DNA of 64,000 bases from Staphylococcus phage Twort. A program made the position numbers and the translations under genes. The stretch lies in sequence record NC_007021.1. One strand, 5' to 3'. Shown here piece by piece: positions 318-63,794 of this stretch. Each line of letters opens with the position of its first letter. Positions within the stretch are counted from its first letter, which is position 1. Under the pieces are notes generated by a model. That model had not been told where the DNA came from and did not search any database. It saw only the letters and a program-made list of their open reading frames with translations.

Positions 318-1377
318 AAAGGAAAATTATATGGAAACAAGGAAGTTTACAAACATATTATCTAAGCTTATAGACAAAACAATGATTGCTACACATAAGA
401 TTACTGACTTTACTCCAGGGTCTGCTGTTCGTTCTTTGTATGAGGCTATAGCACTAGAAATAGAACAATTTTATATTTTAACAAAAGAGAATATTTACTG
501 GGGCATTCAAGAAGGTGTTATTGAGTCTTTTGATTTTAAACGTAGACAAGCTAGAAAAGCACATGGAAACGTAACACTTAGATTTTATAATCCAATTGAA
601 GACGATTATATTATTCCTAGAGGTACAACTTTTACTTCTACCAATCAAGAATATCCTTATCAATTTGAGACATTAGTGGAATATAGAATCCCTAAAGATT
701 CTACTGAAGCTATACTAGAAGTATTCTCTAAACAAACAGGAGCATCAAGTAATATACCTGAGAATACATTAAATGTTATGACAAGTGCACCTCCTAGTTT
801 ACGTTCAATAAATAATGATTCCTCTTTTAATACAGGTACTGATTTAGAGTCATTAGAAGACTTTAAAAAACGATTTCAGGACTTTGTAGAAACACGAGGA
901 CGTGCTACAAATAAATCAGTTAGGTATGGTGCTATGCAGGTTCCTGATGTTGAAGGTGTTTATGTATATGAACAAGTAGGTTTAGTTACAGCTTTTGTTC
1001 ATGATAGAAATGGGAATTTACCAGATACTGTTAAAAAGAATGTGGAGCAAGAACTAGAAGACTATAGACCTAGTGGGATTATGTTAAAAGTAGAACCTGT
1101 AATCAAAACTTTAACAGATATAAGTGTACGTGTTACTTTATCTAATAAAGACAGAATTTCAGATACCTTACAGCACCACATTGAACAAGTTATTAGAACA
1201 TATTTAAATAATTTTAAAGTTTCAGATGACTTAATTTTGAATGATTTAATTCAAGTTATTATGAATATAGATGATAGACTTATTTATGATGTAGAATTTT
1301 CTACTATTCATGGGAATACAATAACTAAACCTGAGGAAATTATTCGAGCAGGTAAAATAGATGTGACTTTAATATAG
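310..1377 (+). CDS. baseplate J-like protein (gp6/gpJ family)
   Basis: 355-aa ORF directly after the gpW-like gene, with overlapping start, as in the conserved gpW-gpJ order of myovirus baseplate modules. Size is typical. Confidence 0.5.
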   Translation: MNRKENYMETRKFTNILSKLIDKTMIATHKITDFTPGSAVRSLYEAIALEIEQFYILTKENIYWGIQEGVIESFDFKRRQARKAHGNVTLRFYNPIEDDYIIPRGTTFTSTNQEYPYQFETLVEYRIPKDSTEAILEVFSKQTGASSNIPENTLNVMTSAPPSLRSINNDSSFNTGTDLESLEDFKKRFQDFVETRGRATNKSVRYGAMQVPDVEGVYVYEQVGLVTAFVHDRNGNLPDTVKKNVEQELEDYRPSGIMLKVEPVIKTLTDISVRVTLSNKDRISDTLQHHIEQVIRTYLNNFKVSDDLILNDLIQVIMNIDDRLIYDVEFSTIHGNTITKPEEIIRAGKIDVTLI

Positions 1378-1387
1378 GAGGGGTCTT

Positions 1388-4300: not shown

Positions 4301-4519
4301 GACACTGAAGGTGGAGTATTTGATAACTCTACAGGTGATATTGTTAAAATGACCACAACGCCTGTTACTAGATTAACATCTATAAGTACATACTCTTACA
4401 GTAATTATACTTACCAGGAGCCATTATTACTAGATTCTAGTATACCACTTTCTGATAGTACAAGAACTCTAAATACCGAATCATATGAAAAAGATGTATC
4501 ATTCCTAAAAATACTGTAA
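1388..4519 (+). CDS. large baseplate/tail-fibre structural protein (1043 aa)
   Basis: GTG start after a GGAGGGG RBS. S/T/N/Y-rich beta-type composition. Position after gpJ matches the gpI/tail-fibre slot. Confidence 0.45.
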   Translation: MSTFLKNLHPLLKRQKDKRDNQDPNYALIKVLNEEMNQIEQDAIKSKLQSSLKTATGAYLNKFGDWFGVYRKSNESDDIYRDRIIEYVLLKRGTNNSIVKAIKDYLEKEDAYVSVYEPYKNIFYTNKSHLNGDDHLMGYYYRFAVINIKIGSYFPTEILDIVNKFKPAGVKVYLTYEGWYTNTGGYVTKMLEGLPKITNYTLLDRLSGFGDTFYGHLNLSERKESFDNSTSLFNVNRSKTNSKDVLSGSSSSGRTFYNYAYYSTHEYTLEDNSSVTSRDMYSAKEMPLEYYAYSKELDNYIVSYTLPKTQSVKFIHNNFNLEEYFLKYNPEIVTGDKKKNFVDFIGEARYDYYISALVPPEENIIVDLQIFDFVTKTWNTIKTTKVGSKEVNVGGSIGYLTDYINSRMVIFTRLRIREYKEVDIKVNYIDISFSNTQKDKYTNNRFLPNIYRVLSSSSSYDYVDLTKISLPTNGDIISKRAYYPSQFIRIGDEYSNSINRNLLNNTIIPKGTYTSESSSIITKQDNELKIETGENQTKTDVKLSSNFVLTSGSTYTLSFMYKSDDNTKPLDYSFLQDTSGKKVPVVFDSINQTSSYTKVIKTFTLDGSSDNYSLIIGKNSTDTFYIKEFKLERGSNATPFQPNPSDLYSVDPNNSVTIDLFKEDNTPIESVVHREKSKNLLQSYKGSIDIHSSITNTEMFTTSGFAHTLYSAKYLSSILEEGKKYTIHFELEIIDTVDSSFKTFSDSHGIWLYSATTPKDNINMQENIIRTSPRKLVKTVTFTAPKITDHRLLVYSGRYTTDGTAYTQPVKHNTIKITNFILQEEKTYSGYSKSSYDEITFLDKTVKVNGARTDIGKINVNSIDNLPKARLLYSTYGSSYDVIKNISLTQGTNTILNKYIDLYGLNTIDYSDINPMSDIVLQSIWDIPINKITSKTGKLDGLYKGFFNAGWQHLVNNNEEVYTFDTLTVLKDTEGGVFDNSTGDIVKMTTTPVTRLTSISTYSYSNYTYQEPLLLDSSIPLSDSTRTLNTESYEKDVSFLKIL

Positions 4520-4526
4520 CATAGTA

Positions 4527-4555
4527 TTGACACGGTTCTTGTTATATGATATAAT
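4527..4555 (+). promoter_or_regulatory. sigma-A-type promoter TTGACA-17-TATAAT; spacer and -10 lie inside a hairpin (4531-4540 / 4556-4565)
   Basis: TTGACA at 4527-4532 and TATAAT at 4550-4555. CACGGTTCTT pairs with AGGAACCGTG. Confidence 0.5.
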
Positions 4556-4603
4556 AGGAACCGTGATATATTAATAAATGAAATCATTAAAGGAGACTCA
4601 TAA

Positions 4604-5113
4604 ATGGCTATTGCGACAATAAATTCACATGTAGAACTAGCTAAATTTTATGCTAGTAAAGACTTTCACTTAGTATTAGGTAAAACATCACCGTGGTCTA
4701 ACGAACAGAGCCCACCACAACCTAAAGATACTACAACAACATTAGATGAGGTTATTGGTTATAAGAAAGCTAAAAAAGTAGCTTTAGTTAGACCCGCACA
4801 ACCAACTACAGATGACAGTAAAACTAAAATTCAGTATGGTAATAGAGAATGGGTAGAAGTATCCCCAGAAAATGCTATTAAAGAAGGAGCTAAATATGTT
4901 TACCTTCAAGCAGAGGTAGTTGGAGAGGAATTACCATTAGGAACATACAGACAAGTAGGATTTACTATGGGATTAAAATCTTCTACTGATAAACTAAACT
5001 TACTACCAAGTGAAGTACAAGATGCAGGAACATTAATTTTTTATGATAATAAACAATTCCAGAACCGAGTAGCTCAAACAACAGTTACTGAGTCATTTAT
5101 TATGGAATTATAA
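4604..5113 (+). CDS. hypothetical structural protein
   Basis: 169-aa ORF with AAAGGAG RBS, within the tail module. Confidence 0.4.
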
Positions 5114-5129
5114 GAAAGGTGATAAGTAG

Positions 5130-8100
5130 ATGGCTTTAAATTTTAGTGGTTCACCCTATTTAGATAGATTCGACCCTACTAAGAATAGAACTAGAGTATT
5201 GTTTAATCCAGATAGGCCTTTACAACAATCGGAATTAAATGAATTACAATCTATCCAAACTTACTATTTAAAGAACTTTGGGGATGCTGTTTTTAAAGAT
5301 GGAGATAAGGTATCTGGTATGGGATTTACTTTAGATACTGGGAATATACTAAAAGTGAATCCAGGTTACGTGTATTTAAATGGTAAAGTACGTTACTACG
5401 AAAGTAATAGTTCAGTTAAACTTACAAAAGTAGGTAGAGAAGAAGTAGGTATTAAGCTAACAGAACGTATTGTTACAGCAGATGAAGATAATAACTTACT
5501 AGACCAAACAAGTGGTGTACCTAGTTATTTTTCTAAGGGTGCTGACCGTGTTCAAGAAGATATGGTTCTTACTGTTAACGACCCTTCTAGTGCTACTATT
5601 TATGTATTTCAAGATGGTGAGTTATACATACAAGCTAGTAATCCAGAGTATGATAGAATTAATAAGGTACTAGCGGAACGTACGTATGAAGAATCTGGTT
5701 CATATAAAGTAGAAGGTTTTGAGATTTTTAGTGATGCTGAAGGTAAAGGCGGAGATACTGTACCTGTTACTGTAGATTCAGGTATTGCTTATGTTTTAGG
5801 TTATCGTGTCAATAAACCAGTATCTACACGTCTTAATTTACAAAAGTCTTATGACTTAGGAACAGCAGAAAATGAATCTACTATATACAACAATTCTAGT
5901 AAAATTATTACACTAGCAAATAAACCTGTTAAACAAGTTAACCGTGTAACAGGACAAGTATTAGTAGAGAAAGAATCCGTATCACGAGATAGTGTAGGAG
6001 ATACTGTAGACTATTTAGCAAATAATACAGCTTTTGAAATCGTAAAAGTATGGACTGAAACAAGCCCAGGAGTTACAACTAAAGAGTATAAACAAGGTGT
6101 AGACTATAGGCTAACAAACGGGCAGTCAGTAGACTGGTCGCTAGGAGGGGAAGAGCCTAAAGGTGGTACTACTTACTATGTTTCGTATAAATATAATAGA
6201 CGTATGGAATCAGGAAAGGACTATGCTTTAAAAACATCAGGTGAGGGTGCAAATAAATACTGGTACTTAGATTTTAATACATCAGGAACTAAACCTATTG
6301 ACCAATCAGTTGTATTAGTAGATTATAATTACTATTTAGCAAGACAAGATTTAATTGTCCTAGATAAAGATGGTAATATTAAGGCATTAAAAGGTGAACC
6401 TAATATTTTAAGAAATGTAACACCACCTTTACAACATGACCCATTTACCTTACAATTAGGGTATGTGACAGTGTTTCCTGATTCAGATGCTACCGAATGT
6501 TATACACAATCTATTGAACGATTATCAATGGAATCTTTACAAAAAATGAAGACACGTATTGATAACTTAGAATACAACCAAGCACTTAATGCATTAGATG
6601 ATGGTGCCATGGAAGGACAAAACCCACTCACATTGCGTTCAGTGTTTAGTGAAGGTTTCGTAAGTTTAGAGAAGGCAGATGTAACTCACCCAGAGTATGG
6701 TGTTGCTATGAGCTTTGAAGATTCCGAGGCTACATTGCAATATACTACTAGTGTGAATGACCCTAACTTACTAACTGATTCTAGTAATATCCATAACTGG
6801 GGTAGAATTGTTTCAGCACCATTTACGGAAGAGCGTACAATATATCAACCATTAGCAAGTGAAACACTTAACGTCAACCCTTATAATATACCTAATAAAC
6901 AAGGTAAGCTAAAACTAACACCTAGTGAAGATAACTGGATTGATGAGGAAAATGTAACTATTAATCAGTTTGGAAAATCAAAAGTAGTTAATACACGTCG
7001 TTGGTGGGTTCACCCAGAGGCATCAGCTAAGCGTAATGCAAAAGCAAGAGCAGAGCAAGCAAAAATAGAATTAGATAATGGTTTAGAGTTTGGTAGTTCG
7101 TTTGAAAAATGGCGTGCCTCAGCTACTGGGACAATGACTGAAGTAGGGCATAAAACATTAGAAGAAATGATTGAGTTCATTAGACAACGTGATGTTAAAT
7201 TTGAGGTCACTGGATTACACCCTAATGACAATAACTTAGTATTATACTTTGACGGTGTTAGAGCCCCTATTACACCAGACGCAGGATACAGAAAAGGAAC
7301 TGAAGAAGGTTCTATTATTGCTAACGCCAAAGGTACAGCAAAGGGTAAATTTACTATCCCTGCAGGTATTCGATGCGGTAACCGTGAAGTATCATTAAAG
7401 AATGAGAACTCAGTTAGTTCAACTACATACTTAGCACATGGAAGAAAGAAAATTAACCAAGAAATTATCCTACGTACACGTGTTACAGTAAATTTAATTG
7501 ACCCTCTAGCTCAATCATTCCAATATGATGAGAACCGTATTATTAGTTCTGTAGGGCTATATTTTGCTTCTAAGGGAGACGCAAACTCCAATGTAACTAT
7601 CCAAGTACGTGAAGTAGGTAACCAAGGTTTCCCTACAAAAACTATCTATGGTGAGCAAGTAGTTAACTCAAGTGATATTAAAGTTTCTAATAACGCAAGT
7701 GCCGAAACACGGGTACACTTTGATGACCCTATTATGGTAGAGGCAGGAAAAGAATACGCATTAGTTATTCTTACAGAAAATGATGAATACACAATGTGGG
7801 TAGGAACTAGAACCAAACCACGTATCGATAAACCATCGGAAACAATTTCTGGTAACCCGTATGCTCGTGGAGTATTATATAGTTCTTCAAACGCTAGTGC
7901 TTGGACTATTCACCAAAATAGTGACTTAAAATTTGGTATTTACACAGCTAAGTTTAATGATACAGCACAAATTGAGTTTGAGGAAATGACTGATGTTAAA
8001 GGTGATAGACTTGTATTAATGTCTACGTACTTAACACCAGAAAATACAGGTTGTACATGGGAAATGAAAGTAATAACTGACGCAATGAATGATGGTACAA

Positions 8101-8585
8101 CGTTTGATTCACTTAAATGGGAGCCTGTAGGTAACTACCAAGATATTGAAATTGATTCAGTTATTAAGAAAGTTAAGTTACGTGCAACATTTAATTCTAA
8201 TAGATATATTTCACCATTATTAAGCGTATCTGACTTAACATTTACAACATTCTTAACTAACCTTAAAGGTAGTTATATTGCACGTGGGGTAGATATGAGT
8301 GAAGCACCGTTTAATACTATTAGACTTAGTTATGAAGCTTTCTTACCTCAAGGAGCAACGGTAACACCTAGATATTCAGTAGATGGTGGATTAACATGGA
8401 AAGAATTTAGTAAACCTGCTACAAAGACTAAAGCTAACAATGAATTTACTAGACACGTGATTGATGAAAAAACAAACTCATTGTCTAAAGATAAAAAACT
8501 TAAAGTTAGATTAGACCTTGCAACTAAGAACAGTTTCTTACGACCACGAGTACGACGACTAATGGTTACAACTAGAGATGAGTAA
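5130..8585 (+). CDS. adsorption-associated tail protein / large tail fibre (1151 aa)
   Basis: Size and position match the ~1150-aa adsorption-associated tail protein of SPO1-/Twort-like phages. AAGGTG RBS. Confidence 0.5.
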   Translation: MALNFSGSPYLDRFDPTKNRTRVLFNPDRPLQQSELNELQSIQTYYLKNFGDAVFKDGDKVSGMGFTLDTGNILKVNPGYVYLNGKVRYYESNSSVKLTKVGREEVGIKLTERIVTADEDNNLLDQTSGVPSYFSKGADRVQEDMVLTVNDPSSATIYVFQDGELYIQASNPEYDRINKVLAERTYEESGSYKVEGFEIFSDAEGKGGDTVPVTVDSGIAYVLGYRVNKPVSTRLNLQKSYDLGTAENESTIYNNSSKIITLANKPVKQVNRVTGQVLVEKESVSRDSVGDTVDYLANNTAFEIVKVWTETSPGVTTKEYKQGVDYRLTNGQSVDWSLGGEEPKGGTTYYVSYKYNRRMESGKDYALKTSGEGANKYWYLDFNTSGTKPIDQSVVLVDYNYYLARQDLIVLDKDGNIKALKGEPNILRNVTPPLQHDPFTLQLGYVTVFPDSDATECYTQSIERLSMESLQKMKTRIDNLEYNQALNALDDGAMEGQNPLTLRSVFSEGFVSLEKADVTHPEYGVAMSFEDSEATLQYTTSVNDPNLLTDSSNIHNWGRIVSAPFTEERTIYQPLASETLNVNPYNIPNKQGKLKLTPSEDNWIDEENVTINQFGKSKVVNTRRWWVHPEASAKRNAKARAEQAKIELDNGLEFGSSFEKWRASATGTMTEVGHKTLEEMIEFIRQRDVKFEVTGLHPNDNNLVLYFDGVRAPITPDAGYRKGTEEGSIIANAKGTAKGKFTIPAGIRCGNREVSLKNENSVSSTTYLAHGRKKINQEIILRTRVTVNLIDPLAQSFQYDENRIISSVGLYFASKGDANSNVTIQVREVGNQGFPTKTIYGEQVVNSSDIKVSNNASAETRVHFDDPIMVEAGKEYALVILTENDEYTMWVGTRTKPRIDKPSETISGNPYARGVLYSSSNASAWTIHQNSDLKFGIYTAKFNDTAQIEFEEMTDVKGDRLVLMSTYLTPENTGCTWEMKVITDAMNDGTTFDSLKWEPVGNYQDIEIDSVIKKVKLRATFNSNRYISPLLSVSDLTFTTFLTNLKGSYIARGVDMSEAPFNTIRLSYEAFLPQGATVTPRYSVDGGLTWKEFSKPATKTKANNEFTRHVIDEKTNSLSKDKKLKVRLDLATKNSFLRPRVRRLMVTTRDE

Positions 8586-8589
8586 TTTT

Positions 8590-8618
8590 AAGGGAAGAAT
8601 TACTCTTCCCTTTTTTTA
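8590..8618 (+). terminator. rho-independent terminator
   Basis: AAGGGAAGA-attac-TCTTCCCTT followed by TTTTTTT. Confidence 0.7.
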
Positions 8619-8635
8619 TAAAGGAATGATTAATT

Positions 8636-8803
8636 ATGCCTAATGAATATAGAGACCCTTATTCACAAACAAAAATATTTATCCCAACGCCCCAAGAAAA
8701 AAGTGTTTTGGAAATGCATGATAGGTTAAATAAAAAAGAAAAATTATTAGATGAGAAGTTAAAACAAATAGATGAATTAATTAGTAGAGGTGGACTAAAA
8801 TAA
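8636..8803 (+). CDS. small hypothetical protein (55 aa), not in ORF track
   Basis: ATG after an AAAGGAATGATTAATT RBS context. Stop overlaps the next start (TAATG). Coiled-coil-like composition. Confidence 0.35.
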   Translation: MPNEYRDPYSQTKIFIPTPQEKSVLEMHDRLNKKEKLLDEKLKQIDELISRGGLK

Positions 8804-9852
8804 TGGCTTTCACTTTTAAACAGCTAAAGGGTACAGATTATTTAAGAGATGCTTACCCTAAAATAAATGAATTAGGTATTAATAGTGCTTCTCTTTCCCA
8901 AGAAGTAGACAAAATTAAGGAAATGTTTTCTGACATACAATCCTTTAATATCACAGATAATACAGGAAAAACACCAGAGGGCTCTCAAATAAATCAGGAT
9001 TATCTTAATAATTACATTGATGTGTATGGCTCCTTAACTTACCCACCAAGCAATACAGCTAGCAATGGTTGGGTTAATGCAAGAATAACTAATTCTGGAG
9101 AGGGAATACTTATTTTCTTACCCGATAATTCAGAAAAGATATTTAAGAAAACTAAACATAGCGGTCAATGGTCTGATTGGACTAGTTTTAGTTCTGATGC
9201 GGAACTTAACAAATTTATTCCAGGAGACATAAATAATAACGGGGATTTTGACTATAAATGGGATTCAGGTTCTGGAACACTAGAGGAAGAAATATCTAAA
9301 GTAGCACCAGGACTATCCTTATTTTATGCAAACCAACATATGAGCAACTCTAAATTTACAGAGCCAGTTAGAGGTACCATTCAAAAAGACCTAGTAAGCA
9401 ATGGATATGTAGCAATTGTTAAAGCAATTGGATATTCTGGAAAAGAATATGTAATACCTGTTATTAATGGTACAGCTAAACCATTACAGCAAACAATAAT
9501 GACGACGGACTTATGGAAGGGTAGTCAAGACCTTGCTACTAAAAGTACATTACGATTAAATGATGCAGTAAGTAATTATGACTATTTAGAATTTTACGTA
9601 GAGTTTTACGTAGGTGGGGTTAATACATTTAAAGCACCTTCAAGACTAACTACAGTATATTTCAGGGACTTTAACCTAACAAATAATGATACCAACTCAG
9701 GTTTCGATTTATTTGAAGGAGCGGTGTCTATTGATAGTTCAGGCTTAACTTTTACACCGTACTTAAGTAAAAAGGTAACAGGTAGTAGTATATGGTTTAA
9801 TCAAACAGGTTATATTACAATAAAATCTATAACGGGAATTAAGCATGTATAG
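8803..9852 (+). CDS. putative tail fibre/structural protein
   Basis: 349-aa ORF in the tail-fibre cluster, N/S/T/G-rich. Confidence 0.35.
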   Translation: MAFTFKQLKGTDYLRDAYPKINELGINSASLSQEVDKIKEMFSDIQSFNITDNTGKTPEGSQINQDYLNNYIDVYGSLTYPPSNTASNGWVNARITNSGEGILIFLPDNSEKIFKKTKHSGQWSDWTSFSSDAELNKFIPGDINNNGDFDYKWDSGSGTLEEEISKVAPGLSLFYANQHMSNSKFTEPVRGTIQKDLVSNGYVAIVKAIGYSGKEYVIPVINGTAKPLQQTIMTTDLWKGSQDLATKSTLRLNDAVSNYDYLEFYVEFYVGGVNTFKAPSRLTTVYFRDFNLTNNDTNSGFDLFEGAVSIDSSGLTFTPYLSKKVTGSSIWFNQTGYITIKSITGIKHV

Positions 9853-9867
9853 AAAGGAAGATAAATA

Positions 9868-10233
9868 ATGGGAAGACAAATTAATTTTGCAGTAGATGGT
9901 TATGTGTTACTTTTACTAGATAAAAATCTTATTACAGGATACGTAACTTATGGGCAAGCTGAACCAGGTATGCCACAAGTTATTGTGCATGAAGATTTAC
10001 TACCTAAAGACTTCTTTAAAGAATTTAAAGTAAATAAATACAAATATTACAGTTCACCTGAAGAAATTATTATTAATCCAGACTATAAAGACCCACAACA
10101 AGAAGAGCTCGAACAGGAAGAGAAACCCCAACAATCTACAACAGGTTCTAAATCAGTTGAGCAGTTAATGGATGAACTACAGAGTATTAAGGATATGCAA
10201 AACAAGATTTTAGAGTTACTTATGAGAAAGTAG
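9868..10233 (+). CDS. hypothetical protein (possible fibre assembly factor), acidic/Q-rich C-terminal half
   Basis: 121-aa ORF between two fibre-like genes. Confidence 0.3.
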   Translation: MGRQINFAVDGYVLLLLDKNLITGYVTYGQAEPGMPQVIVHEDLLPKDFFKEFKVNKYKYYSSPEEIIINPDYKDPQQEELEQEEKPQQSTTGSKSVEQLMDELQSIKDMQNKILELLMRK

Positions 10234-10241
10234 GGCAATAC

Positions 10242-11570
10242 ATGGCATTAATAAATTTTAAAGAAATAACAGAATCTGACACACTCAAAGCACTAACGGA
10301 GGCTGTTAATAACATAGGTACAGAGTTATCTGAGGACGGTAATATTTTTGCTAAGGTTGAAAAGTTAGAAACACAATCTGCAAGTACCCCTAAGTATTAC
10401 CTAGTTCAAGATAGTGGTAAAGCTAAACAAGTATCAAGTAGAAGCTCATTAAGTAGTATTACACAAACAGGATTCTATTATGTATCATCTAACGTATCTT
10501 TCTATATATCAGAATTACCACAAGAGCTTAGAACAGATTTACTGTTAAGTGTATATCAAACAGAAGTAGGGGTAGTTCAGTTTATTAACACTATATCAAC
10601 TGTCGAGTCGAAAAAATACTTTGCCTACCGTGTGAATTATAATGGTATGGCTGGCTCTTGGAGATTTATAGACTCAAGAATTAATAATAGAAGTACACTG
10701 GTTGTTGGTGGTTCCTATAAAGATATTATTACACCAGGTAATTACATTGTAAATAGTTTAAAAGATTTACCAGATAGTAATTCCGACGGGTATTTATCTG
10801 TAATAACGAATCAATCTGATGAACGTTCTTATATTTACATTAGTCCAGATAATAAAATGTATCATTCAGTATCTAATCAATCTAAAGACTATGAGTGGGT
10901 TAAAGAGTTTGAGACAAAAGATATTGAAAAATATTTACTTACTAATTTAGATGGTTCTTTTAATTTACTTATTTATAGTAACGAGGGTAAATCTTTTGAA
11001 ACTAAAGTATTAGAATACTTAAACTCATTAGATAAACCACGAACTTTTACATTTTATATACAAGGTGGGGTTTCTGGAAACCCATCATCTGGTAGTTGTA
11101 GAGGTCTTTTTGTAATAGATTCTATAAACTATGGTAACTACTATATGATTGATAACTATGGTAATTTATTTACAGGTTCCTTAAACAACGGAGCGTTACT
11201 TAAAGCAAAACCTTCTACGTCCTCTGATGTATTATGGACAGGTGCAAAAAACTTCACTGATAAAGGCACTGTTGAGACTCTTAAGTTCCCTATTGCTGAT
11301 TATGAATATGTAAAAATATTTGTTACAGTACCATCACAAGGACCAAATACAAGTGACATTACAAACGATTTACAAAACGGCGCTCACGAGTTTTACATTA
11401 AAGGACAATCACGAGCATCAGTGTCAGGTCTAGTTGTATCTTCAGATACTAAATTTGATTTATATCGTGTAGGTATTGCCTTTGGACAAAAGTCATGGCG
11501 TATTACAGATATGGCAAAAACAAATACTAAGAATGCTTATATTACACGTATTGTAGGTATAAACTATTAA
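10242..11570 (+). CDS. putative receptor-binding/tail-fibre protein
   Basis: 442-aa S/T/N/G-rich ORF. Last gene of the structural operon, followed by a terminator. Confidence 0.35.
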   Translation: MALINFKEITESDTLKALTEAVNNIGTELSEDGNIFAKVEKLETQSASTPKYYLVQDSGKAKQVSSRSSLSSITQTGFYYVSSNVSFYISELPQELRTDLLLSVYQTEVGVVQFINTISTVESKKYFAYRVNYNGMAGSWRFIDSRINNRSTLVVGGSYKDIITPGNYIVNSLKDLPDSNSDGYLSVITNQSDERSYIYISPDNKMYHSVSNQSKDYEWVKEFETKDIEKYLLTNLDGSFNLLIYSNEGKSFETKVLEYLNSLDKPRTFTFYIQGGVSGNPSSGSCRGLFVIDSINYGNYYMIDNYGNLFTGSLNNGALLKAKPSTSSDVLWTGAKNFTDKGTVETLKFPIADYEYVKIFVTVPSQGPNTSDITNDLQNGAHEFYIKGQSRASVSGLVVSSDTKFDLYRVGIAFGQKSWRITDMAKTNTKNAYITRIVGINY

Positions 11571-11598
11571 AACTAGGATTAATTTCCTAGTTTTTTTA
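11571..11598 (+). terminator. rho-independent terminator
   Basis: AACTAGGA-ttaatt-TCCTAGTT followed by TTTTTTT. Confidence 0.7.
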
Positions 11599-11627
11599 TT
11601 GACTTAATACTAAAAGTATGATAAAAT
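11599..11627 (+). promoter_or_regulatory. promoter TTGACT-17-TAAAAT with TGn extended -10
   Basis: TTGACT at 11599-11604, TGaTAAAAT ending at 11627. Lies directly upstream of the helicase gene. Confidence 0.5.
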
Positions 11628-11658
11628 AACCCTTGTGTATAGGGGGAAGGGAGCTTTT

Positions 11659-14600
11659 ATGAAGTTACGTATAAAAAACCTTTTCACTTATGTTGAATTT
11701 GAGGAGGATGATAAGTATTTAAAGGACATATTTTTAAAACGTGTACATAAAACAATTGGCGCAAGACAACAAGGATTTCAGTTTAGTCCTGCATATAAGA
11801 GAGGTAGTTGGGATGGATACATTGATTTCTATGTTTACGAGGAGGATAAATTCCCCACAGGGCTCCTACATAGAGTAGAGTTATTACTAGGAGAATTACA
11901 ATCAAGATATAACTTCCAATATTCTAAGATTGATGAACGTTCTGAAAGTTTCTTAGCTCCTGAAGATATTGACAAAGAAATTAAATTACTTGATAATAAG
12001 ATAGGTCAGATTACTTTAAGAGAATATCAATATCAAGCTGTGTACGAAAGTTTGGTTAATTTTAATGGCGTATTAAAGATTGCGACTAATGGTGGTAAAT
12101 GTATTTCTATGGATTCTATGATTTTAACTACAGAAGGGTACAAGTCTCTTCAAGAGATTTTTGAAACTCAAGGAGTTAAAGTAGATAATAAAGAAAAAGT
12201 CATAGAATTAAAATATCCATTAATAAATCGTTATGGTGACGTTGAGTACACTAGTCACTTTACTAAGAATGGAGAAAAGCCTACAAAGAGAATAAAAACT
12301 AATAAAGGTATTGAGTTAGTTAATACTTATAATCACCCATTATTAGTTAGAGAAGGTTTTAATCTTATATGGAAAAAAAGTGAAGATATTGAAGTAGGAG
12401 ATATTTTAGTATCTAGAGTAGGAGACCATCAATTTGGTAACAACAATACTGTAGAAAATGAAGAGGAAGCCTATGCATTAGGTTGTATGGTAGCTGACAG
12501 TTATTTAGGTTCTTACAGTCGTTTATCGTTTTCTAACGATAAAAAAGAGATACTAGATAAAGTTTCTAAATTTTGGAATACTTTCAGTAATAAAGAAGTT
12601 TATTATGATACGTATAAAGAATCTAAAGGTATAACTATACACTTACATGACACAAATAAAACTAAAGAATTTCATGATAAATATAAAATTGAATACGGAG
12701 TAGCAAAAGATAAGAAAATACCTAAGTGTATTATGGAATCTCCTGAAAATATTCAATTAGCATTTGTAAGTGGTTACTTAGAATGTGAGTCTAGTATATC
12801 AGAAAAGAACTTAGAAGTTACGAGTGCTTCTAAAGATTTACTAAAAGACTTACAACTTATTCTTTCTAATATAGGGATTGTATCAACTAATAAAGAAAAA
12901 GTAGTTAAAAAATACAAACACAATAAGTATTATAGACTTATAGTTAATAGAAAAGAATTGATTAAATTATTACCTTTATTAAGATTTGAAACACAACAAA
13001 GAAAAAATCAAAAAGAGAACTTCTTATCTAATAATACAAAAATTAAAAGTTCTTATGGAAACACTATAGAAGGGTCACGTTATTTATTAAAAAAATATAG
13101 AGATTCTTTAAATATAGACAAAAAAGAATTTAGTAAGTATCTTTCAAGAGATACTATTACTATTGATAGACTTAGAGAAGTAATTTCCTTATACCCTGAC
13201 GGGGATAAGGAAATTAGAGAACTTTTTGAAAATGTAGTAAATAATAATATTTACTACCAGAAAGTAGAACAAGTATTAGAAGGGGAGATTATACCTACAT
13301 TTGATGTATGTATGCCAAAAACACATAGTTTTATTGCCAACACTATTGTTAATCATAATACAGAATGTGCCAGTGGAATTATAGACCAATTACTACCACA
13401 ACTTGAAAAAGGGGAAACAATAGCTTTTTTCACAGGTTCTACAGAAATCTTTCATCAATCAGCAGATAGATTAAAAGAACGCTTAAATATTCCTATTGGT
13501 AAAATAGGTGCAGGTAAGTTTGATGTTAAACAGGTAAACGTTGTAATGATACCTACATTGAACTCAAATATGAAAGACCCTACAGAAGGATTAAAAGTTA
13601 CACCTAAGCAAAATATTAGTAAAAAGATAGCTAAGGAAGTATTGCCTAAATTTGAAGGTGGCAAGAATCAAAAAAGGTTTATGGGTATGTACTTAAAACA
13701 GTTTGAACCTAAAACTAAAGTAGACCAAAAGGTTAAAGATGAGTTAATTAATATTTACAATACTTCTAAGTCAGACCAAGAGTTACTACTTAACCTTAGA
13801 AAACATAATGTTATCTTCCAAAATATTGCGAAGAGTAAGAATGAAAAGAAATATAATAAGTATCACCAAATGCGTGAATTCTTAGACTCAGTTGCTGTAA
13901 TGATAGTAGATGAGGCGCACCATAGTAAATCTGATTCATGGTATAATAACCTAATGACTTGTGATAATGCACTGTACAGAATAGCTTTGACAGGTTCTAT
14001 TGATACACAAGATGATTTATTGAATATGAGATTAGAAGCATTATTCGGTGAAGTTATTTCTAGAGTATCAAATGAGTTTTTAATAAGTGAAGGGCACTCT
14101 GCTAAGCCTACTATTAATACAATACCTATAATGACACCTAAAGATATAGAAAACCAAAAAGAATATAGGGACGTTTATGATGAAGGGATAACAAATAATG
14201 AATTTAGAAATAAACTTATTGCAAAACTAACAGAAAAGTGGTATAATAAGGACAAAGGTGTTTTAATCATTGTTAACTTTATTACCCATGGGGAAAATAT
14301 ATCTAAATTACTAGAAGAGTTAGGCATAGAACATTTCTTCTTACACGGTGAAGTAGATTCAGAACTACGACAACAAAAATTAAATGATATGAGAAGTGGA
14401 AAGTTAAAAGTTATGATTGCTACAAGTCTCATTGATGAGGGAGTAGACATTAGTGGTATTCATGCACTTATCTTAGGTGCAGGAGGTAAGTCACTAAGAC
14501 AAGTTCTACAGCGTATTGGTAGAGCTTTACGTAAGAAGAAGGATGATAATACAACACAGATATTTGATTTTGAGGATAGAACACATAAATTTTTATATGA

Positions 14601-14673
14601 GCATTTTAAGCAAAGATTATCTATTTATGAAGAAGAAAAGTTTGAAGTAAAAGATGTTACAAGAAAGGGATAG
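11659..14673 (+). CDS. SF2 DEAH-box DNA helicase, intein-containing precursor
   Basis: Motif II MIVDEAHHS, motif III LTGS, motif VI QRIGRALR. The P-loop ATNGGK|...|TE is interrupted by an intein. The likely start is the ATG at 11659 after a GGGGGAAGGGAG RBS; the track ATG at 11635 lies inside the RBS. Confidence 0.8.
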   Translation: MKLRIKNLFTYVEFEEDDKYLKDIFLKRVHKTIGARQQGFQFSPAYKRGSWDGYIDFYVYEEDKFPTGLLHRVELLLGELQSRYNFQYSKIDERSESFLAPEDIDKEIKLLDNKIGQITLREYQYQAVYESLVNFNGVLKIATNGGKCISMDSMILTTEGYKSLQEIFETQGVKVDNKEKVIELKYPLINRYGDVEYTSHFTKNGEKPTKRIKTNKGIELVNTYNHPLLVREGFNLIWKKSEDIEVGDILVSRVGDHQFGNNNTVENEEEAYALGCMVADSYLGSYSRLSFSNDKKEILDKVSKFWNTFSNKEVYYDTYKESKGITIHLHDTNKTKEFHDKYKIEYGVAKDKKIPKCIMESPENIQLAFVSGYLECESSISEKNLEVTSASKDLLKDLQLILSNIGIVSTNKEKVVKKYKHNKYYRLIVNRKELIKLLPLLRFETQQRKNQKENFLSNNTKIKSSYGNTIEGSRYLLKKYRDSLNIDKKEFSKYLSRDTITIDRLREVISLYPDGDKEIRELFENVVNNNIYYQKVEQVLEGEIIPTFDVCMPKTHSFIANTIVNHNTECASGIIDQLLPQLEKGETIAFFTGSTEIFHQSADRLKERLNIPIGKIGAGKFDVKQVNVVMIPTLNSNMKDPTEGLKVTPKQNISKKIAKEVLPKFEGGKNQKRFMGMYLKQFEPKTKVDQKVKDELINIYNTSKSDQELLLNLRKHNVIFQNIAKSKNEKKYNKYHQMREFLDSVAVMIVDEAHHSKSDSWYNNLMTCDNALYRIALTGSIDTQDDLLNMRLEALFGEVISRVSNEFLISEGHSAKPTINTIPIMTPKDIENQKEYRDVYDEGITNNEFRNKLIAKLTEKWYNKDKGVLIIVNFITHGENISKLLEELGIEHFFLHGEVDSELRQQKLNDMRSGKLKVMIATSLIDEGVDISGIHALILGAGGKSLRQVLQRIGRALRKKKDDNTTQIFDFEDRTHKFLYEHFKQRLSIYEEEKFEVKDVTRKG
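12100..13359 (+). mobile_element. intein (420 aa) with LAGLIDADG homing endonuclease domain
   Basis: Begins with Cys (TGT at 12100) directly after GGK of Walker A. Ends IVNHN (AAT CAT AAT at 13351-13359) and is followed by Thr. Intein blocks F/G are TFDVCMPKTHSFIANTIVNHN. Two LAGLIDADG-like motifs, YALGCMVADSYLGS and LAFVSGYLECESS. Confidence 0.75.
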
Positions 14674-14678
14674 ATTAG

Positions 14679-16166
14679 ATGAGTAAGATAAAGAGAAGAT
14701 TATATAGTTATTTAGAACAGTATTCATTAAAGCATGAATACATAGCAACAACAAAAAAAGAATTAGCTGAAAAACTTAATATCTCTTTGTCTGCTCTTAC
14801 ATCTAACCTTAAGACCTTAGAAAATGAAGGTAAGATTGTTACTTCTACTAAACGTGGAAACAATGGTGGGTTTATTGTTACCCTTAATTTACCTAATACT
14901 GTTAATGAGGTAGAAGGTAATATAATAGAGTCTAGTAAAGACTACGCTAACTATTTAAAAGAAAAAGTATTTCCTACTTACCAATACAACTATAAAGGTA
15001 AACGTAGAACTAAAGTTGAAATGGTAAAATATAATGCTATTAAGGATAAGCAAAGAAAAGTTATATATGATATGAACTACTACTTAGATGGATTGCTATA
15101 TCCTGATAAAGAATTATTTAACTTATCTTATGACCCAGAAGGTTTTTATAAGGCATTTATTTTATATAAGCTCTATAATCAATACTCAGCTATGTTTTGT
15201 AAGCATAAGTTTGAAGAAACTAAAAAGGATTTTTATACTGCTAAAATGCAGTATTATATGAATTATCCTACACCTAAAAACTTCTTTAGTACAAAAGAGT
15301 TTACTATATTCTATAAATTACAAAAGTTAACTAAAGAATATGATATTAATGTATTTAAGTACATTCAAAATGTATTTAAGAACGTAGATTATGAATATAG
15401 GAATGGATACAAGAAAACATATTTACCACAACCTAACTACCTTATAAGTGAGAAGTATATAGATAGGTATTTAAAATATGTAAAAGGAGTAACTAAGAAT
15501 GTAAATACTACACAAAGACATGTAGGGGATTTAGAACTACTTGTAGATAGTTCTATATTTACAGAAGATTTAGTTGTTCAACAGTTACACCAACTATATA
15601 TAGAAGGTATTAATATTAGTAAGGTAGATATTAACTCTATATTTAATAGTGCTTTAGATGTAGAAGATGTAATGCTAGGACTATCTAGTAATGAAAAACA
15701 ACTAGTACTATTAAACTTTAATTATGAAGTAGAACAAAAAGTTAGTCATCTACCTGATAAAAATAAATTACTAATTACGAATTATGTAAAGCAGTTAATT
15801 ATTAATGAATATGATAGCTCTATAATCTCTAATAAGGCTTTACTTTCTATGTTTACGTTAGAACGGGAGTATTTTGTTGGTAGTAAAGTATTTAATACAC
15901 AAGAATCTTTATTTAAGTATAAGGATTTTGTAGGTACTTTAAATAACCAAGGTAATACTTTAGTAGGGTATACGTATTTAGTTTATAGAAACTTTAATAA
16001 CCTTATGTATACTATTAGAATGTATGGTGACTTGAAAGGGTATCAAACAAATTTAAAAGATTTACATAATGTGTTAGAAAAAAATAATCTAAAAGGGTTG
16101 ATTCCTTTTACTAAGTATGGTACACTTGATTATGACAAATTGAAAGGAAGATATGATAATGAGTAA
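14679..16166 (+). CDS. hypothetical replication-associated protein with N-terminal winged-helix-like region
   Basis: 495 aa. N-terminal ELAEKLNISLSALTSNLKTLENEGKIV is HTH-like. Located between two helicases. Confidence 0.4.
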   Translation: MSKIKRRLYSYLEQYSLKHEYIATTKKELAEKLNISLSALTSNLKTLENEGKIVTSTKRGNNGGFIVTLNLPNTVNEVEGNIIESSKDYANYLKEKVFPTYQYNYKGKRRTKVEMVKYNAIKDKQRKVIYDMNYYLDGLLYPDKELFNLSYDPEGFYKAFILYKLYNQYSAMFCKHKFEETKKDFYTAKMQYYMNYPTPKNFFSTKEFTIFYKLQKLTKEYDINVFKYIQNVFKNVDYEYRNGYKKTYLPQPNYLISEKYIDRYLKYVKGVTKNVNTTQRHVGDLELLVDSSIFTEDLVVQQLHQLYIEGINISKVDINSIFNSALDVEDVMLGLSSNEKQLVLLNFNYEVEQKVSHLPDKNKLLITNYVKQLIINEYDSSIISNKALLSMFTLEREYFVGSKVFNTQESLFKYKDFVGTLNNQGNTLVGYTYLVYRNFNNLMYTIRMYGDLKGYQTNLKDLHNVLEKNNLKGLIPFTKYGTLDYDKLKGRYDNE

Positions 16167-51644: not shown

Positions 51645-51653
51645 AAAAGTTTA

Positions 51654-51684
51654 GGGAATCTGTTGACATTCAGATTCCCTTTTG
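51654..51684 (+). terminator. terminator hairpin GGGAATCTG-ttgacatt-CAGATTCCC followed by TTTT, with a promoter -35 in the loop
   Basis: Sequence inspection. Confidence 0.6.
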
Positions 51685-51691
51685 TTATACT
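51663..51691 (+). promoter_or_regulatory. promoter TTGACATTC-17-TGnTATACT embedded in a terminator hairpin
   Basis: TTGACA at 51663-51668, TATACT at 51686-51691. Confidence 0.55.
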
Positions 51692-53339: not shown

Positions 53340-53348
53340 AAAAACTTA

Positions 53349-53381
53349 GACTTAGGTGTTGACATTCACCTAAGTCTTTTG
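53349..53381 (+). terminator. terminator hairpin GACTTAGGTG-ttgacatt-CACCTAAGTC followed by TTTT, with a promoter -35 in the loop
   Basis: Same architecture as 51654. Confidence 0.6.
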
Positions 53382-53387
53382 TATACT
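53359..53387 (+). promoter_or_regulatory. promoter TTGACATTC-17-TATACT embedded in a terminator hairpin
   Basis: TTGACA at 53359-53364, TATACT at 53382-53387. Confidence 0.55.
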
Positions 53388-55157: not shown

Positions 55158-55490
55158 ATGGCAAGAGTAAAAATTTATAACGTAATTGAGAAAATGTGTA
55201 TAGAAAAACTAAAGGAAGAGGTGTATGATGAAAATATTGATGCTTTTTCTAACTTGAATAGACATAAGTTTCAGTTAACTTTACACTACTGGAAAAATAC
55301 AAATGACCCACATTATAATAACTTACCTGATAAACTCGTATTTAAAGGTACTTATAAAGAGTTATATGAAAAGGCGTATGGTAGTGGGTTAATTGAATCT
55401 GAATATGCTTTTGCAAGTTCACTTAAAAAAGAAGAAAAGTATGACTCACTAATTCAAATAGAAATAAAAGAAGTAGAAATATTAGAATAA
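55158..55490 (+). CDS. hypothetical protein
   Basis: 110-aa ORF with AAAGGATAG RBS. Confidence 0.4.
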   Translation: MARVKIYNVIEKMCIEKLKEEVYDENIDAFSNLNRHKFQLTLHYWKNTNDPHYNNLPDKLVFKGTYKELYEKAYGSGLIESEYAFASSLKKEEKYDSLIQIEIKEVEILE

Positions 55491-56463
55491 AGAATATTGA
55501 GTTAGCTTAATAAAAAGAATAAAGTCTTAAAAATCCACTATATATAAAGTATATAGTGGTTTTGTTGTAATATAAGAATAAATAAACTAAATATATATAA
55601 AAAAATAGTAAAAAGATATAAAGATATAAAGATAGGAATAGGTATATAGTAGATAAAAGGAAAGACTGAAATACACTAACCTAGTATATTATACATAGTA
55701 AATATATATATGTATATATAACTTAAAGTATAATAATAATTATATACACTGATACGTATAGTAATAAATACCTATAATTAAAAATAAAATTAAATAAGTA
55801 AAGATAACTAAATTAAAACCAATTAAAAGAAAACGAACCCCAGAACTTTTTCTTATATATAAGAATATGTAGTAGAAAAAGAAAAAGAAGAAAGAAAGAT
55901 AGCTAGAAGAATAGAGTTATTGTAAAGAAAGTAATTAGAAATAAATAAGTGAATAAATAAAGGTATAAGAGGGAGTAGTGTAAAAGAATAAATAATAGAA
56001 GAAGTAAATATAGATACCCTATAAGCATAATAAGCAATGTAAATAAGAAACAATGTAAGTAACTATACAATAAGTAATAGGTAATAGGTAATACAATAAA
56101 CAATAAAAACTAATAGTAAATAACAATACAATAGCAATAACAATACAATAGACAAAGAAACAGATAATACAAACCCCAGAACTTTTTCGACCCTCCGTCC
56201 CGTCCTACTTAATGTAGTATACGGTTATATTATGTTTGAAATATAGATATTTATTATACTTTACTTACTTTAATTACTGTATAATGCTTAATATTCTACA
56301 CTTAATCTATAGTAATATACTAGTTATCTACCTTAATGTATTAGTTATTTATACTAATCTGGTACTATCAATGCTTTATTCTACCTTTATATACTATTAC
56401 TTATATATACTCTTATATGGTTTCCGCTTCTACACTTTTTTTGTATACATGTATATATATGTA

Positions 56464-56492
56464 TTGACATTCTATATAGTATTTGGTATACT
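56464..56492 (+). promoter_or_regulatory. promoter TTGACATTCTATATAG-...-TGgTATACT
   Basis: TTGACA at 56464-56469, TATACT at 56487-56492. Same -35 context as 57308. Confidence 0.55.
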
Positions 56493-56522
56493 TAATATAT
56501 ACTTATAAGGAGGGAAGTTATT

Positions 56523-57269
56523 ATGTTTAATGAAGAAACTACAAATAGAACTAGATTAAGTAAGGAAGATATAGATAATAGGATAAAAGAGCGTAAGTTG
56601 TGGATGAGAACTAAATGTAAGGAAGGTAAACACACAACATTCAGCAATTGTATTATCGAGAATATAGACTTAAGTGGTTATTACTTACGTGGATTAGATT
56701 TCCATGGGTCTAGGTTAGAAAATGTTAATTTAAGTAACGTAGACTTGTCAGTTGCAGACCTATCAGGTACTGAGATTATTAATTGTAATTTACATGGTAC
56801 TAACTTCAAGGAATCTAATATAAATAATAGTGAGATATTTGCATGTAGAATTGAAGATGTAGATATGAGTTATACTGACCTTCGTAATTCTACTATAATT
56901 ACTGAAATATATAATACTAATTTTAATTATACTAATATGAATCATAGTCATTTAAAGTGTGCAACATTAGTAGGATGTACGTTTAAAGATACTAGTTTAC
57001 GGCATGCAGTATTAGATTATGTTAGGGTAGCAGATACTGAGTTATCTAAAGCAAGTTTAAATAGTGCTGTTATCTTAGATATTGAGGGTCTAAATGTTTA
57101 CTCTGTTGGTAATAATGGTAATCCTATTATTTATATTCCTAAATATGATAAAGTATTTGCGGAGCACTGGACTTCTACACTAGATGGATTTCTAAAGCAA
57201 GGACTTGAAATGGAAGAAGAAAAAGGTAAGATTGAGAAAATTTATGAATTCTTTAAGGTATGTAGGTAG
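56523..57269 (+). CDS. pentapeptide-repeat protein (Qnr/MfpA-like right-handed beta-helix)
   Basis: Tandem A(D/N)LSx-type pentapeptides, e.g. NIDLSGYYLRGLDFHGSRLENVNLSNVDLSVADLSGTEIINCNLHGTNFKESNINNSEIF... Confidence 0.7.
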   Translation: MFNEETTNRTRLSKEDIDNRIKERKLWMRTKCKEGKHTTFSNCIIENIDLSGYYLRGLDFHGSRLENVNLSNVDLSVADLSGTEIINCNLHGTNFKESNINNSEIFACRIEDVDMSYTDLRNSTIITEIYNTNFNYTNMNHSHLKCATLVGCTFKDTSLRHAVLDYVRVADTELSKASLNSAVILDIEGLNVYSVGNNGNPIIYIPKYDKVFAEHWTSTLDGFLKQGLEMEEEKGKIEKIYEFFKVCR

Positions 57270-57307: not shown

Positions 57308-57336
57308 TTGACATTCTATATAGCAAGTAGTATAAT
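57308..57336 (+). promoter_or_regulatory. promoter TTGACATTCTATATAG-17-TATAAT
   Basis: TTGACA at 57308-57313, TATAAT at 57331-57336. Confidence 0.6.
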
Positions 57337-58816: not shown

Positions 58817-59119
58817 ATGTTTAAAAAGTCAAAAGAAAAGAATAAAGTAGAATATGGTAGAAACGAAGGTAGCCATGTACCACAAAATAAGGCATTAGTT
58901 CAGTTAGTTAGAGATATTACTGGTGGTTTTGTTTTACCTCTTACAGATGGTCATGAGTATGTAGTAGTAATTCGTGGTACTAAGACGCTAGTATTTAATG
59001 TTGTAGGTGAAAGAATTTACTTAAGTGGTTCATTATTAGGTAAAGATTTTTCTTGTGCTGACAACAAAAATAATCCTGTTTCTATTGAAGTAGTTAAATT
59101 AATTTCTAAATTAGTATAA
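58817..59119 (+). CDS. hypothetical protein
   Basis: 100-aa ORF with AGGAGGAA RBS. Confidence 0.4.
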   Translation: MFKKSKEKNKVEYGRNEGSHVPQNKALVQLVRDITGGFVLPLTDGHEYVVVIRGTKTLVFNVVGERIYLSGSLLGKDFSCADNKNNPVSIEVVKLISKLV

Positions 59120-60914: not shown

Positions 60915-60943
60915 TTGACAGTGGTTAGGGTAAGTAGTATAAT
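60915..60943 (+). promoter_or_regulatory. promoter TTGACA-17-TATAAT
   Basis: TTGACA at 60915-60920, TATAAT at 60938-60943. Confidence 0.6.
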
Positions 60944-61914: not shown

Positions 61915-61976
61915 TAGTATTTTAAATAGATACTTTATACTATGCGAGTGGTAGTTAGTATATTGTATACATATTT

Positions 61977-62087
61977 GAAAAATTGTCCATTCTGTATTAT
62001 AAGATACACAAGATTAATATAGCTCTGTATATGAAAATTGTCCATTCTGTATTATATTTTGGGAAAAATTGTCCATTCTGTATTATA
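61977..62087 (+). repeat. three direct repeats of GAAAA(A)TTGTCCATTCTGTATTATA (iteron-like)
   Basis: Copies at 61977-62001, 62033-62056 and 62063-62087. Confidence 0.8.
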
Positions 62088-62513
62088 CACATAAATCGTG
62101 AAACCCTTTGAGGGAGTAAGATGAAAGCATAATTTTCATAAGTTTTGCATCTACTTTTGTTAGTGGGATAATACATCTTGAACAGTACCTAACAAAAGAA
62201 TTAAAACCCTATGACTTATCTGAACTATTTCATAGTTCATCTAAGCCACTTACTTTCCAAACCTGCAAAGTAAGCAAAGAGGTGGAGGAATAAAACACCT
62301 TAAAACCGAGGTGTTTTACACCTCCTATTTTATTTATTTAGTAAACACAATAATTAATATTATATATAGTAATAAGTATAGTAAGTGTAATAGTAAAAAG
62401 GTTTTATAGTAAGTATAGATTACTCAAGATTAGTATTAGCATAGCGTAGTGGATTTTTATAATATACTTCTATGTCACGAAAAAACGATTTTCAATTAAT
62501 TACTCTTTATCTA

Positions 62514-62542
62514 TTGACACTCATTCCCTTATACCTTATAAT
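62514..62542 (+). promoter_or_regulatory. promoter TTGACA-17-TATAAT
   Basis: TTGACA at 62514-62519, TATAAT at 62537-62542. RBS AGGGAGG follows. Confidence 0.6.
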
Positions 62543-62574
62543 TAAACTATATTCAAATAAAGGGAGGAATAATA

Positions 62575-63377: not shown

Positions 63378-63794
63378 ATGAATGAAGAACAAGCAAAGGA
63401 TAAGATATATTATGAGTTACTTTACACAGTACGTGAGTATGGAGGTACAGAAGCGGATTTATTAAAGCTTATTGATAGTTTTAGTTATTTAGATGGTAAA
63501 GCTCCCATGTTTATGAATCCAGAAATGGAAAGCTACTCAATTGAACAATTTCTTAATGAACAAAAGAGTAACTTAGAAAAGTATTTAGAAGCTCTAGATA
63601 TAAAATATAATAAAGTAATTGATATTACAGGAGCAGAGTATAAAATATTCGGTGGTAAGTTAGTAATACAAGAAGGAGATAATTATTATACTTTGTCTAT
63701 CAATGTAGATAATAGTCATGATATTACCTTATATAAGTTACCTTTTTACTCTATGTTAAGTATTATCATTGACAATAAATACAAATTTCAGTAA
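63378..63794 (+). CDS. hypothetical protein
   Basis: 138-aa ORF with AAAGGAGA RBS. Confidence 0.4.
   Translation: MNEEQAKDKIYYELLYTVREYGGTEADLLKLIDSFSYLDGKAPMFMNPEMESYSIEQFLNEQKSNLEKYLEALDIKYNKVIDITGAEYKIFGGKLVIQEGDNYYTLSINVDNSHDITLYKLPFYSMLSIIIDNKYKFQ

Follow-up and report, generated by a model that had tools for sequence, protein, structure and literature searches.

In phages of the genus Kayvirus, the left terminus of the genome, GGAATTCTTTTACCTCTCTC, has been mapped from a pile-up of read starts in IME-SA1 and IME-SA2 (PMC3896407), and the annotated repeat start of phage K (...TAAGTACCTG|GGAATTCTTTTACCTCTCTC) agrees with the terminus found in those two phages. In kayvirus 812, the left end of the repeat (position 1) is packaged first and stays bound around the portal after ejection, the right end being the first to leave (PMC12886913), and a 35-bp tandem repeat, present in 2 to >20 copies and absent in 812h1, forms the end of the unit genome (PMC6445280). 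In phage K, 35-bp tandem units, each of which carries part of the boundary motif, precede the repeat start (GGAATTCTTTT), and K-like repeats are separated from unique DNA by 12-bp inverted repeats, TAAGTACCTGGG and CCCAGGTACTTA (PMC6022877). The present analysis concerns a gene-free interval at positions 55491-56522 of a 64,000-nt stretch (the window) of Staphylococcus phage Twort (NC_007021.1), which sequence comparison places as a Staphylococcus myovirus of the Twortvirinae (Herelleviridae), in line with an original prediction, made from the letters of this DNA, that took the genome to be SPO1-like. It is quite likely that in this interval the unique genome meets, at its right end, a long direct terminal repeat (LTR), and that the interval contains a packaging-initiation site preceded by a dispensable spacer. 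A boundary of this kind is expected for Twort-like phages; the window has its own boundary motif, plus a duplicated copy of it.

The closest public genome to the window is that of vB_SpsM-DH2 (DH2; OM373548.1), with ~84% identity over 57% of a 22-kb query, followed by Kayviruses at ~73%. The DH2 record contains an exact 14,855-bp direct terminal repeat (positions 1-14855 and 138527-153381 are 100% identical), and its base 1 (= 138527) aligns with position 56178 of the window, which gives the window a boundary homologous to a defined terminus of a relative. To the right of 56178, homology to DH2 extends through the downstream genes of the window, which follow the order of the DH2 repeat, and small early genes, consensus host-type promoters and synteny with the terminal-repeat genes of relatives are all present on this side. 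Two of these genes (58817-59119 and 63378-63794) have homologues in Silviavirus genomes that were deposited with both repeats, and in each such record the homologues appear twice, within the first 3-7 kb. On the other side, the last gene before the interval (55158-55490) has a homologue, vBSauCG_139, in the Kayvirus-classified phage vB_Sau_CG, where one gene, a ~530-bp gap and two short open reading frames (ORFs) lie between it and TreA plus the other terminal-repeat genes. Because DH2 was deposited with both repeats, gene order is conserved and a like architecture is found in two other genera, we infer that the left boundary of the LTR lies at 56178, inside the second of two copies of a 17-mer. 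The same homology, synteny and cross-genus architecture argue for a packaging-related site; an LTR boundary and a packaging-related site were two of the four candidates offered by the original prediction, the others being a replication origin and a non-coding RNA locus, for which no support was found (see below). The placement provides a probable physical left end and packaging start for a little-known Twortvirinae lineage, of which three public members were found, and such a location is useful for the orientation, annotation and engineering of candidate therapy phages.

The third member of this lineage, L013, is an IMG/VR contig (UViG_2840904412_000002) that was located by an exact-pattern scan. 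When a 24-mer from the conserved leader was used in exact-pattern scans of IMG/VR, GTDB genomes and JGI metagenomes, L013 was the only match, and eight further IMG/VR matches to a 16-mer are chance matches in unrelated high-GC contigs. At this locus DH2 and L013 are true homologues of the window, since they share the 17-mer, a C-rich island and a 265-bp leader that is 91-92% identical.

The 17-mer, AACCCCAGAACTTTTTC, occurs in two exact copies, at 55836-55852 (copy 1) and 56172-56188 (copy 2), and nowhere else in the 64 kb, exactly as had been reported from the sequence; with up to three mismatches allowed, 0.26 matches would be expected in the window by chance. The duplication stops at exactly 17 nt, and the flanks of the two copies are unrelated. 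Copy 2, on the + strand, would hold the first base of the LTR (AACCCC|AGAACTTTTTC, at 56178) by its alignment with base 1 of DH2, and is the probable site of terminase cutting and of packaging start. It is followed on the + strand by the C-rich run GACCCTCCGTCCCGTCC at 56189-56205, which is unique in the window, is conserved in DH2 and L013, and falls within the sole 20-nt stretch with at least 13 G+C between 24,000 and 64,000, so its earlier description as unusual was apt for the last 40 kb as a whole. This run would occupy repeat positions 12-28, at the extreme left end of the virion DNA, and that end is predicted to begin AGAACTTTTTCGACCC. Copy 1, also on the + strand, is an upstream, extra and exact copy of the boundary motif that corresponds to the end of the DH2-type order of spacer block A and 17-mer. 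It has no C-rich element after it; because this element is missing, copy 1 is presumed to remain uncut and is probably a non-functional relic or decoy. In the window lineage, in phage K and in the Silviavirus SAP6, a C-rich run comes after the true boundary copy whereas the upstream copies lack it, suggesting a cross-genus rule in which the true boundary is the motif copy that precedes the C-rich run, and copies without the run lie upstream in a fast-changing, dispensable spacer.

Copy 2 also opens the conserved leader, a non-coding island of 265 bp (56172-56436) that is T/C-rich on the + strand, lies at the start of the terminal repeat, and is 91.8% identical to DH2 and 90.6% identical to L013. 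Conservation is sharply delimited, since identity is 34% (to DH2) in the 32 nt upstream, ~92% within the island, 60-64% in the downstream promoter segment and ~84% in the genes. The leader has no conserved ORF and no RNA-structure signal on either strand. By analogy, we infer that the island may be the first-packaged DNA end, used for terminase recognition and/or portal anchoring. In the comparison with the cognate region of relatives that the original prediction had proposed, the 17-mer and leader are conserved, and the spacer upstream of copy 2 is hypervariable among the window, DH2 and L013.

The variable part consists of two blocks. The order in the window is terminator, block A, 17-mer copy 1, block B and 17-mer copy 2, whereas DH2 and L013 each have one 17-mer, DH2 with only block A and L013 with only block B; the promoter segment and first repeat gene of these relatives also differ from those of the window. 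Block A (55560-55835) is non-coding, very A+T-rich and 64.5% purine, is ~88% identical to DH2 (L003 14770-14850 and 14960-15091), carries in DH2 insertions of 168 and 109 bp relative to the window, and is missing from L013. Block B (55853-56171) is 72% purine, contains short tandem repeats of the slippage type, has homology from 55878 onward to L013 1928-2254, the tandem repeats being the sites of indels, and is missing from DH2. No similarity was found between blocks A and B (z = 1.0). DH2 and L013 are ~97% identical on either side of the junction; the interval from the stop codon of a gene denoted X to the 17-mer spans 1037 bp in DH2, where it comprises a small gene, the hairpin of the terminator and block A, and is filled in L013 by an unrelated 310 bp (block B). 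This cassette swap terminates exactly at the 17-mer. Tandem Repeats Finder reported short, low-copy arrays in the region (AAAGATAT x2.9, AATAGGT x3.6, and a 17-nt unit x3.6 at 56090-56151), which bears out the short tandem repeats described earlier. The spacer is read as sequence-dispensable because each block is missing from a viable close relative and because of the slippage and indels seen in it. The 17-mers had been thought to bracket the purine-rich block; they do bracket block B, the right half of the purine tract, the rest of which lies to the left of copy 1, and copy 2 would itself hold the boundary. The 168-bp insertion of DH2 carries (L003 ~14621-14649) a near-consensus promoter, TTGACA-17-TATACT, followed by GGAGGTGG; this promoter is absent from the window and faces the purine-rich spacer, toward the repeat boundary.

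A working model, extrapolated from related phages, is that the terminase recognizes the 17-mer plus the C-rich region in concatemers and would cut at ~56177/56178. Packaging would proceed rightwards, so the conserved leader would be the first DNA to enter the capsid and may be conserved as a cis-acting packaging or end element. The upstream spacer (~610 bp, made of modules A and B, each ending in a 17-mer) would lie outside the packaged left end and have no sequence-specific function; it could then turn over by replication slippage, deletion between short direct repeats and cassette exchange, and the two copies of the 17-mer would be the footprint of this turnover. The simplest history would start from an ancestral A-17mer-B-17mer order, from which a deletion between the 17-mers would have removed block B in DH2; in L013, the genes, block A and copy 1 would have disappeared. 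It is equally possible that the window is a recombinant of A-type and B-type phages. At the concatemer junction of T7 and at lambda cos, the terminase cut is sequence-specific, recognition lies on the packaged side and auxiliary repeats are found nearby; these sites have no homology to the one in the window.

Compared with the Kayvirus boundary (K, 812, IME-SA1/2), the site in the window has the same position, between the small rightward gene that is last in the unit genome and the early genes of the terminal repeat. The variable repeats with extra (partial) copies of the boundary motif that precede the Kayvirus site have an analogue in the hypervariable spacer and second 17-mer of the window. 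In both cases the repeat begins with RGAAYT and a C/T-rich run, and has a gene-free leader of several hundred bp and consensus host-type promoters; a unique, first-packaged left terminus would be a further common feature if the window is as predicted. The start of the window repeat weakly resembles the mapped Kayvirus terminus GGAATTCTTTT (PMC3896407). However, the motif in the window is a different 17-mer, and the 12-bp inverted pair of K-like repeats is absent, as neither TAAGTACCTGGG nor CCCAGGTACTTA has a match within 2 mismatches near the window boundary. Near the right boundary of DH2 there is no inverted copy of the 17-mer, and a direct match there (CCTACTTAATGTAGTAT vs CCCACTTAGGGTAGTAT, the latter spanning the boundary; repeat positions 26-42) agrees at 14/17 positions, which is about the level of chance. 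The two systems also differ in that the spacer is ~610 bp and purine-rich in the window and ~200 bp and 50% purine in K, in that the extra motif copy of the window is exact and lies 336 bp away instead of forming a 35-bp tandem array, with no homology to the K repeat, and in the length of the terminal repeat, which is 14.9 kb in the closest relative of the window and ~8.5 kb in K. As it lacks the inverted pair, the lineage of the window is not of the K-like boundary type, though it is built alike.

A similar architecture exists in SAP6 (OQ025230.1), which has an exact 8,243-bp repeat that starts GGAATTTCTTGGCTTCCC and whose boundary is embedded in a non-coding stretch of 956 bp. Upstream of this boundary, 521 bp are 64% purine and 7.9% C and contain short tandem repeats, including ~14 copies of (TAAGTAG), and the spacer carries a diverged second copy of the boundary motif that spans the cut point and is without the C-rich part. 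SAP6 shares with the window ~1 kb of non-coding DNA across the boundary, a purine-rich, repeat-laden spacer, a T-rich leader, and homologues of window repeat genes inside its terminal repeat, and copy 2 of the window resembles the SAP6 repeat start GGAATTTCTT. Unlike the window, SAP6 has significant iteron-like repeats in its leader and a repeat of 8.2 kb, and there is no nucleotide homology between the two phages in spacer or leader.

The base composition that first drew attention to this region is as extreme as had been claimed. The 300-nt stretch with the most purine in the 64 kb begins at 55851 (0.713, about +3.7 standard deviations) and the one with the least at 56201 (0.393, about -4.7 standard deviations), so the purine and pyrimidine extremes of the window are neighbours, and the strand does turn pyrimidine-rich where this had been noted. 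From 55560 to 56171, purine is 67.6% and C is 7.0%, as compared with 57.2% and 12.0% for the window overall; the strand is therefore purine-rich, as stated, and C-poor describes it accurately where 'nearly C-free' does not, the longest C-free run in the window (55904-56016) being 113 nt. The G+C content of the region is very low (17-23%). This purine skew is not the neutral baseline, because purines make up 50% of codon third positions and mostly 51-60% of the other intergenic gaps (69% in one gap of 157 nt). Among the spacers compared, purine content is elevated in block A, block B and SAP6, and is 50% in phage K. The switch from purine to pyrimidine falls at the base where the terminal repeat would begin.

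Several observations weigh against assigning the interval to a terminal-repeat boundary with a functionless spacer. The window contains one copy of the predicted repeat, the right boundary of which would lie beyond 64000. The DH2 record is flagged UNVERIFIED and is unannotated, and a publication on how its ends were determined was not found. DH2 is also without the inverted-repeat boundary pair of K-like repeats, so the logic of the cut site may differ, and the first repeat bases resemble those of K and SAP6 over a short stretch (RGAAYT plus a pyrimidine-rich run), a likeness that is statistically not strong. In an iteron test with an unbiased k-mer measure and dinucleotide shuffles, the leaders of the window and DH2 were not significant, and those of K and SAP6 were. 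Helical (10-11 bp) phasing of A/T dinucleotides and of G/C was tested in the first 130 and 260 nt of the repeat in five phages, as a possible link between the leader and the portal-bound anchor DNA of phage 812, and was not significant or consistent. Finally, a functionless spacer does not explain the purine excess in two unrelated blocks and in SAP6.

This last point is the basis for the proposal that the purine tract next to repeat base 1 is a selected functional element, either an R-loop or primer tract or an ejection pause signal, because purine content is 64-72% in both blocks and in the Silviavirus spacer, well above the baselines, and the switch occurs at the boundary base; we regard this proposal as unlikely. 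As a primer, a purine-rich transcript on the pyrimidine template would be processed by phage RNase H, and the processed RNA would prime strand-displacement synthesis across the repeat, by which the repeat would be duplicated at each concatemer junction. In form, such a tract would resemble the polypurine tract of retroviruses, by which the left edge of the 3' LTR is defined. As a pause signal, the tract would lie where the first-entering right repeat ends (the right end enters first in kayvirus 812), in analogy to the first-step-transfer stop of T5. The occurrence of a purine-biased spacer in two genera is relevant to the way in which the terminal repeat of these phages is duplicated.

The original prediction also listed a replication origin, and an A+T-rich, repeat-bearing non-coding region at a switch in strand composition is where one might be sought: G+C is 17-23%, the change from purine to pyrimidine is abrupt, there are several short tandem repeats, and block A has weak inverted similarity to the leader (z = 3.6-4.0). 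An origin at this locus is nevertheless very unlikely, as 55491-56522 contains no DnaA-box-like site (counts are at chance level across the window), the low copy number of the tandem repeats and their indels between relatives point to slippage rather than to conserved iterons, and blocks A and B are individually dispensable, each being missing from a 97%-related phage. In addition, the switch in composition falls on the very base of the predicted terminal-repeat boundary, and no origin has been mapped at this locus in relatives, as far as was found in the literature. A large inverted repeat centred on the boundary was also tried as a candidate and rejected; block A and the reverse-complemented leader are ~60% identical, which is taken to be largely compositional, and block B and phage K gave nothing. 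The fourth of the listed candidates, a purine tract or leader that is transcribed into a functional non-coding RNA, could draw on the long gene-free stretch with 265 bp of high conservation, on the DH2 promoter that faces its spacer, and on an extended -10-like sequence, TGTATAAT, in the leader of the window. It is highly improbable, however, because Rfam gives no match in 55491-56522 with E values of up to 1 admitted, the z-scores from folding lie close to 0 (0.43 for the leader + strand, 0.08 for the leader - strand and -0.06 for the spacer), and the spacer of the window lies after a terminator and has no promoter above 10/12. The transcriptome of phage K includes long and small non-coding RNAs, none of which is at the left repeat boundary (PMC9241854), and three sequences at 91-97% identity have no power to reveal covariation.

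One further explanation is that block B is the insertion of a small mobile element, with the 17-mers as its target-site duplication, since exact 17-bp direct repeats surround a 319-bp segment that is missing from DH2. This is extremely improbable: block B has neither terminal inverted repeats nor coding capacity, and it has no second copy in the window, the phage collection, IMG/VR, GTDB genomes or JGI metagenomes, so it is known from one locus in two phages. In L013, block B adjoins gene X with a single 17-mer, an arrangement at odds with a discrete element whose ends are fixed. The pattern is explained more simply by recombination at the boundary or by a deletion between short direct repeats, and kayviruses rearrange between direct repeats in the same manner (PMC6445280).

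The predicted terminal-repeat boundary lies between two + strand genes, 55158-55490 (110 aa) and 56523-57269 (248 aa), and all of the structural, replication and small-gene modules of the window are on the + strand. The former, the last gene of the unique genome, matches phrog_34735 (E = 1.9e-69) and its function is unassigned. A terminator scan placed an intrinsic terminator (11-bp stem, 3-nt loop, T-run) on the + strand at 55535-55569, where it would close the last operon of the unique genome, and the same hairpin sequence is found in DH2. As had been concluded earlier, there are no credible genes in the interval itself, because the ORFs of at least 30 aa within 55500-56515 are all TTG-started, of low complexity and rich in Y, L and I; the longest of them (56236-56508, + strand, 90 aa) is truncated to 49 aa in DH2.

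The gene at 56523-57269 on the + strand, which would be the first of the terminal repeat, has as its product a pentapeptide-repeat protein of 248 aa (Pfam PF00805, E = 2.8e-19). Neither DH2 nor L013 shares this gene, the first repeat gene of both being unrelated. Some pentapeptide-repeat proteins are DNA mimics, and the product of this gene could be an early host-takeover or anti-defence factor. The gene is preceded by a ribosome-binding site (GGAGGG, + strand, 56510-56515) and by a predicted early promoter of the host sigma-A type on the + strand (56464-56492; TTGACA-17-TATACT plus an upstream TG, 11/12 consensus) that would drive it; at the matching position DH2 and L013 have a different promoter. 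To the right of 56178, the + strand contains three perfect TTGACA-17-TATAAT promoters, at 57308-57336, 60915-60943 and 62514-62542 (all in a span of 6 kb and each with an ORF close behind it), and four with 11/12 matches, and six of these seven are directly upstream of an ORF. The same pattern of consensus promoters was described by Botka et al. for Kayvirus repeats (PMC6445280). Long gene-free gaps also occur inside the repeat, for example at 61915-62574 (660 nt).

Additional sequence features were observed in the leaders and at the repeat ends. In the leader of the window, CTTAATSTA occurs three times in 133 nt, a motif that was picked post hoc. Candidate protein-binding iterons are present in K (L004 2948-3060, six copies of TTAATCTAT) and in SAP6 (L016 1-380, 6-9 copies of sequences like ATATATAGT). 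Near its end, over the final 60-100 bp, the terminal repeat has several G or C runs amid A+T-rich DNA in DH2 (L002 14755-14855), K (L005 8400-8486) and SAP6 (L016 ~8184-8243), those of DH2 including CGGGGG and CCCCCC.

Elsewhere in the window, a megablast search with 28000-50000 as the query returned one phage record, outside the best 25 rows, in which identity to part of the query reaches 99% or more, which implies a short match; the match could reflect an intron that both phages share, a homing-endonuclease gene or recent exchange of a segment. Two terminator-promoter cassettes were also found, at 51653-51691 and 53348-53387, in which a hairpin with a 10-11-bp stem carries TTGACA inside its loop and is followed by a T-run. 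In both, TATACT lies exactly 17 nt past TTGACA and the common core is TGTTGACATTCA, such that the -35 box of the next promoter lies within the loop of the preceding terminator.

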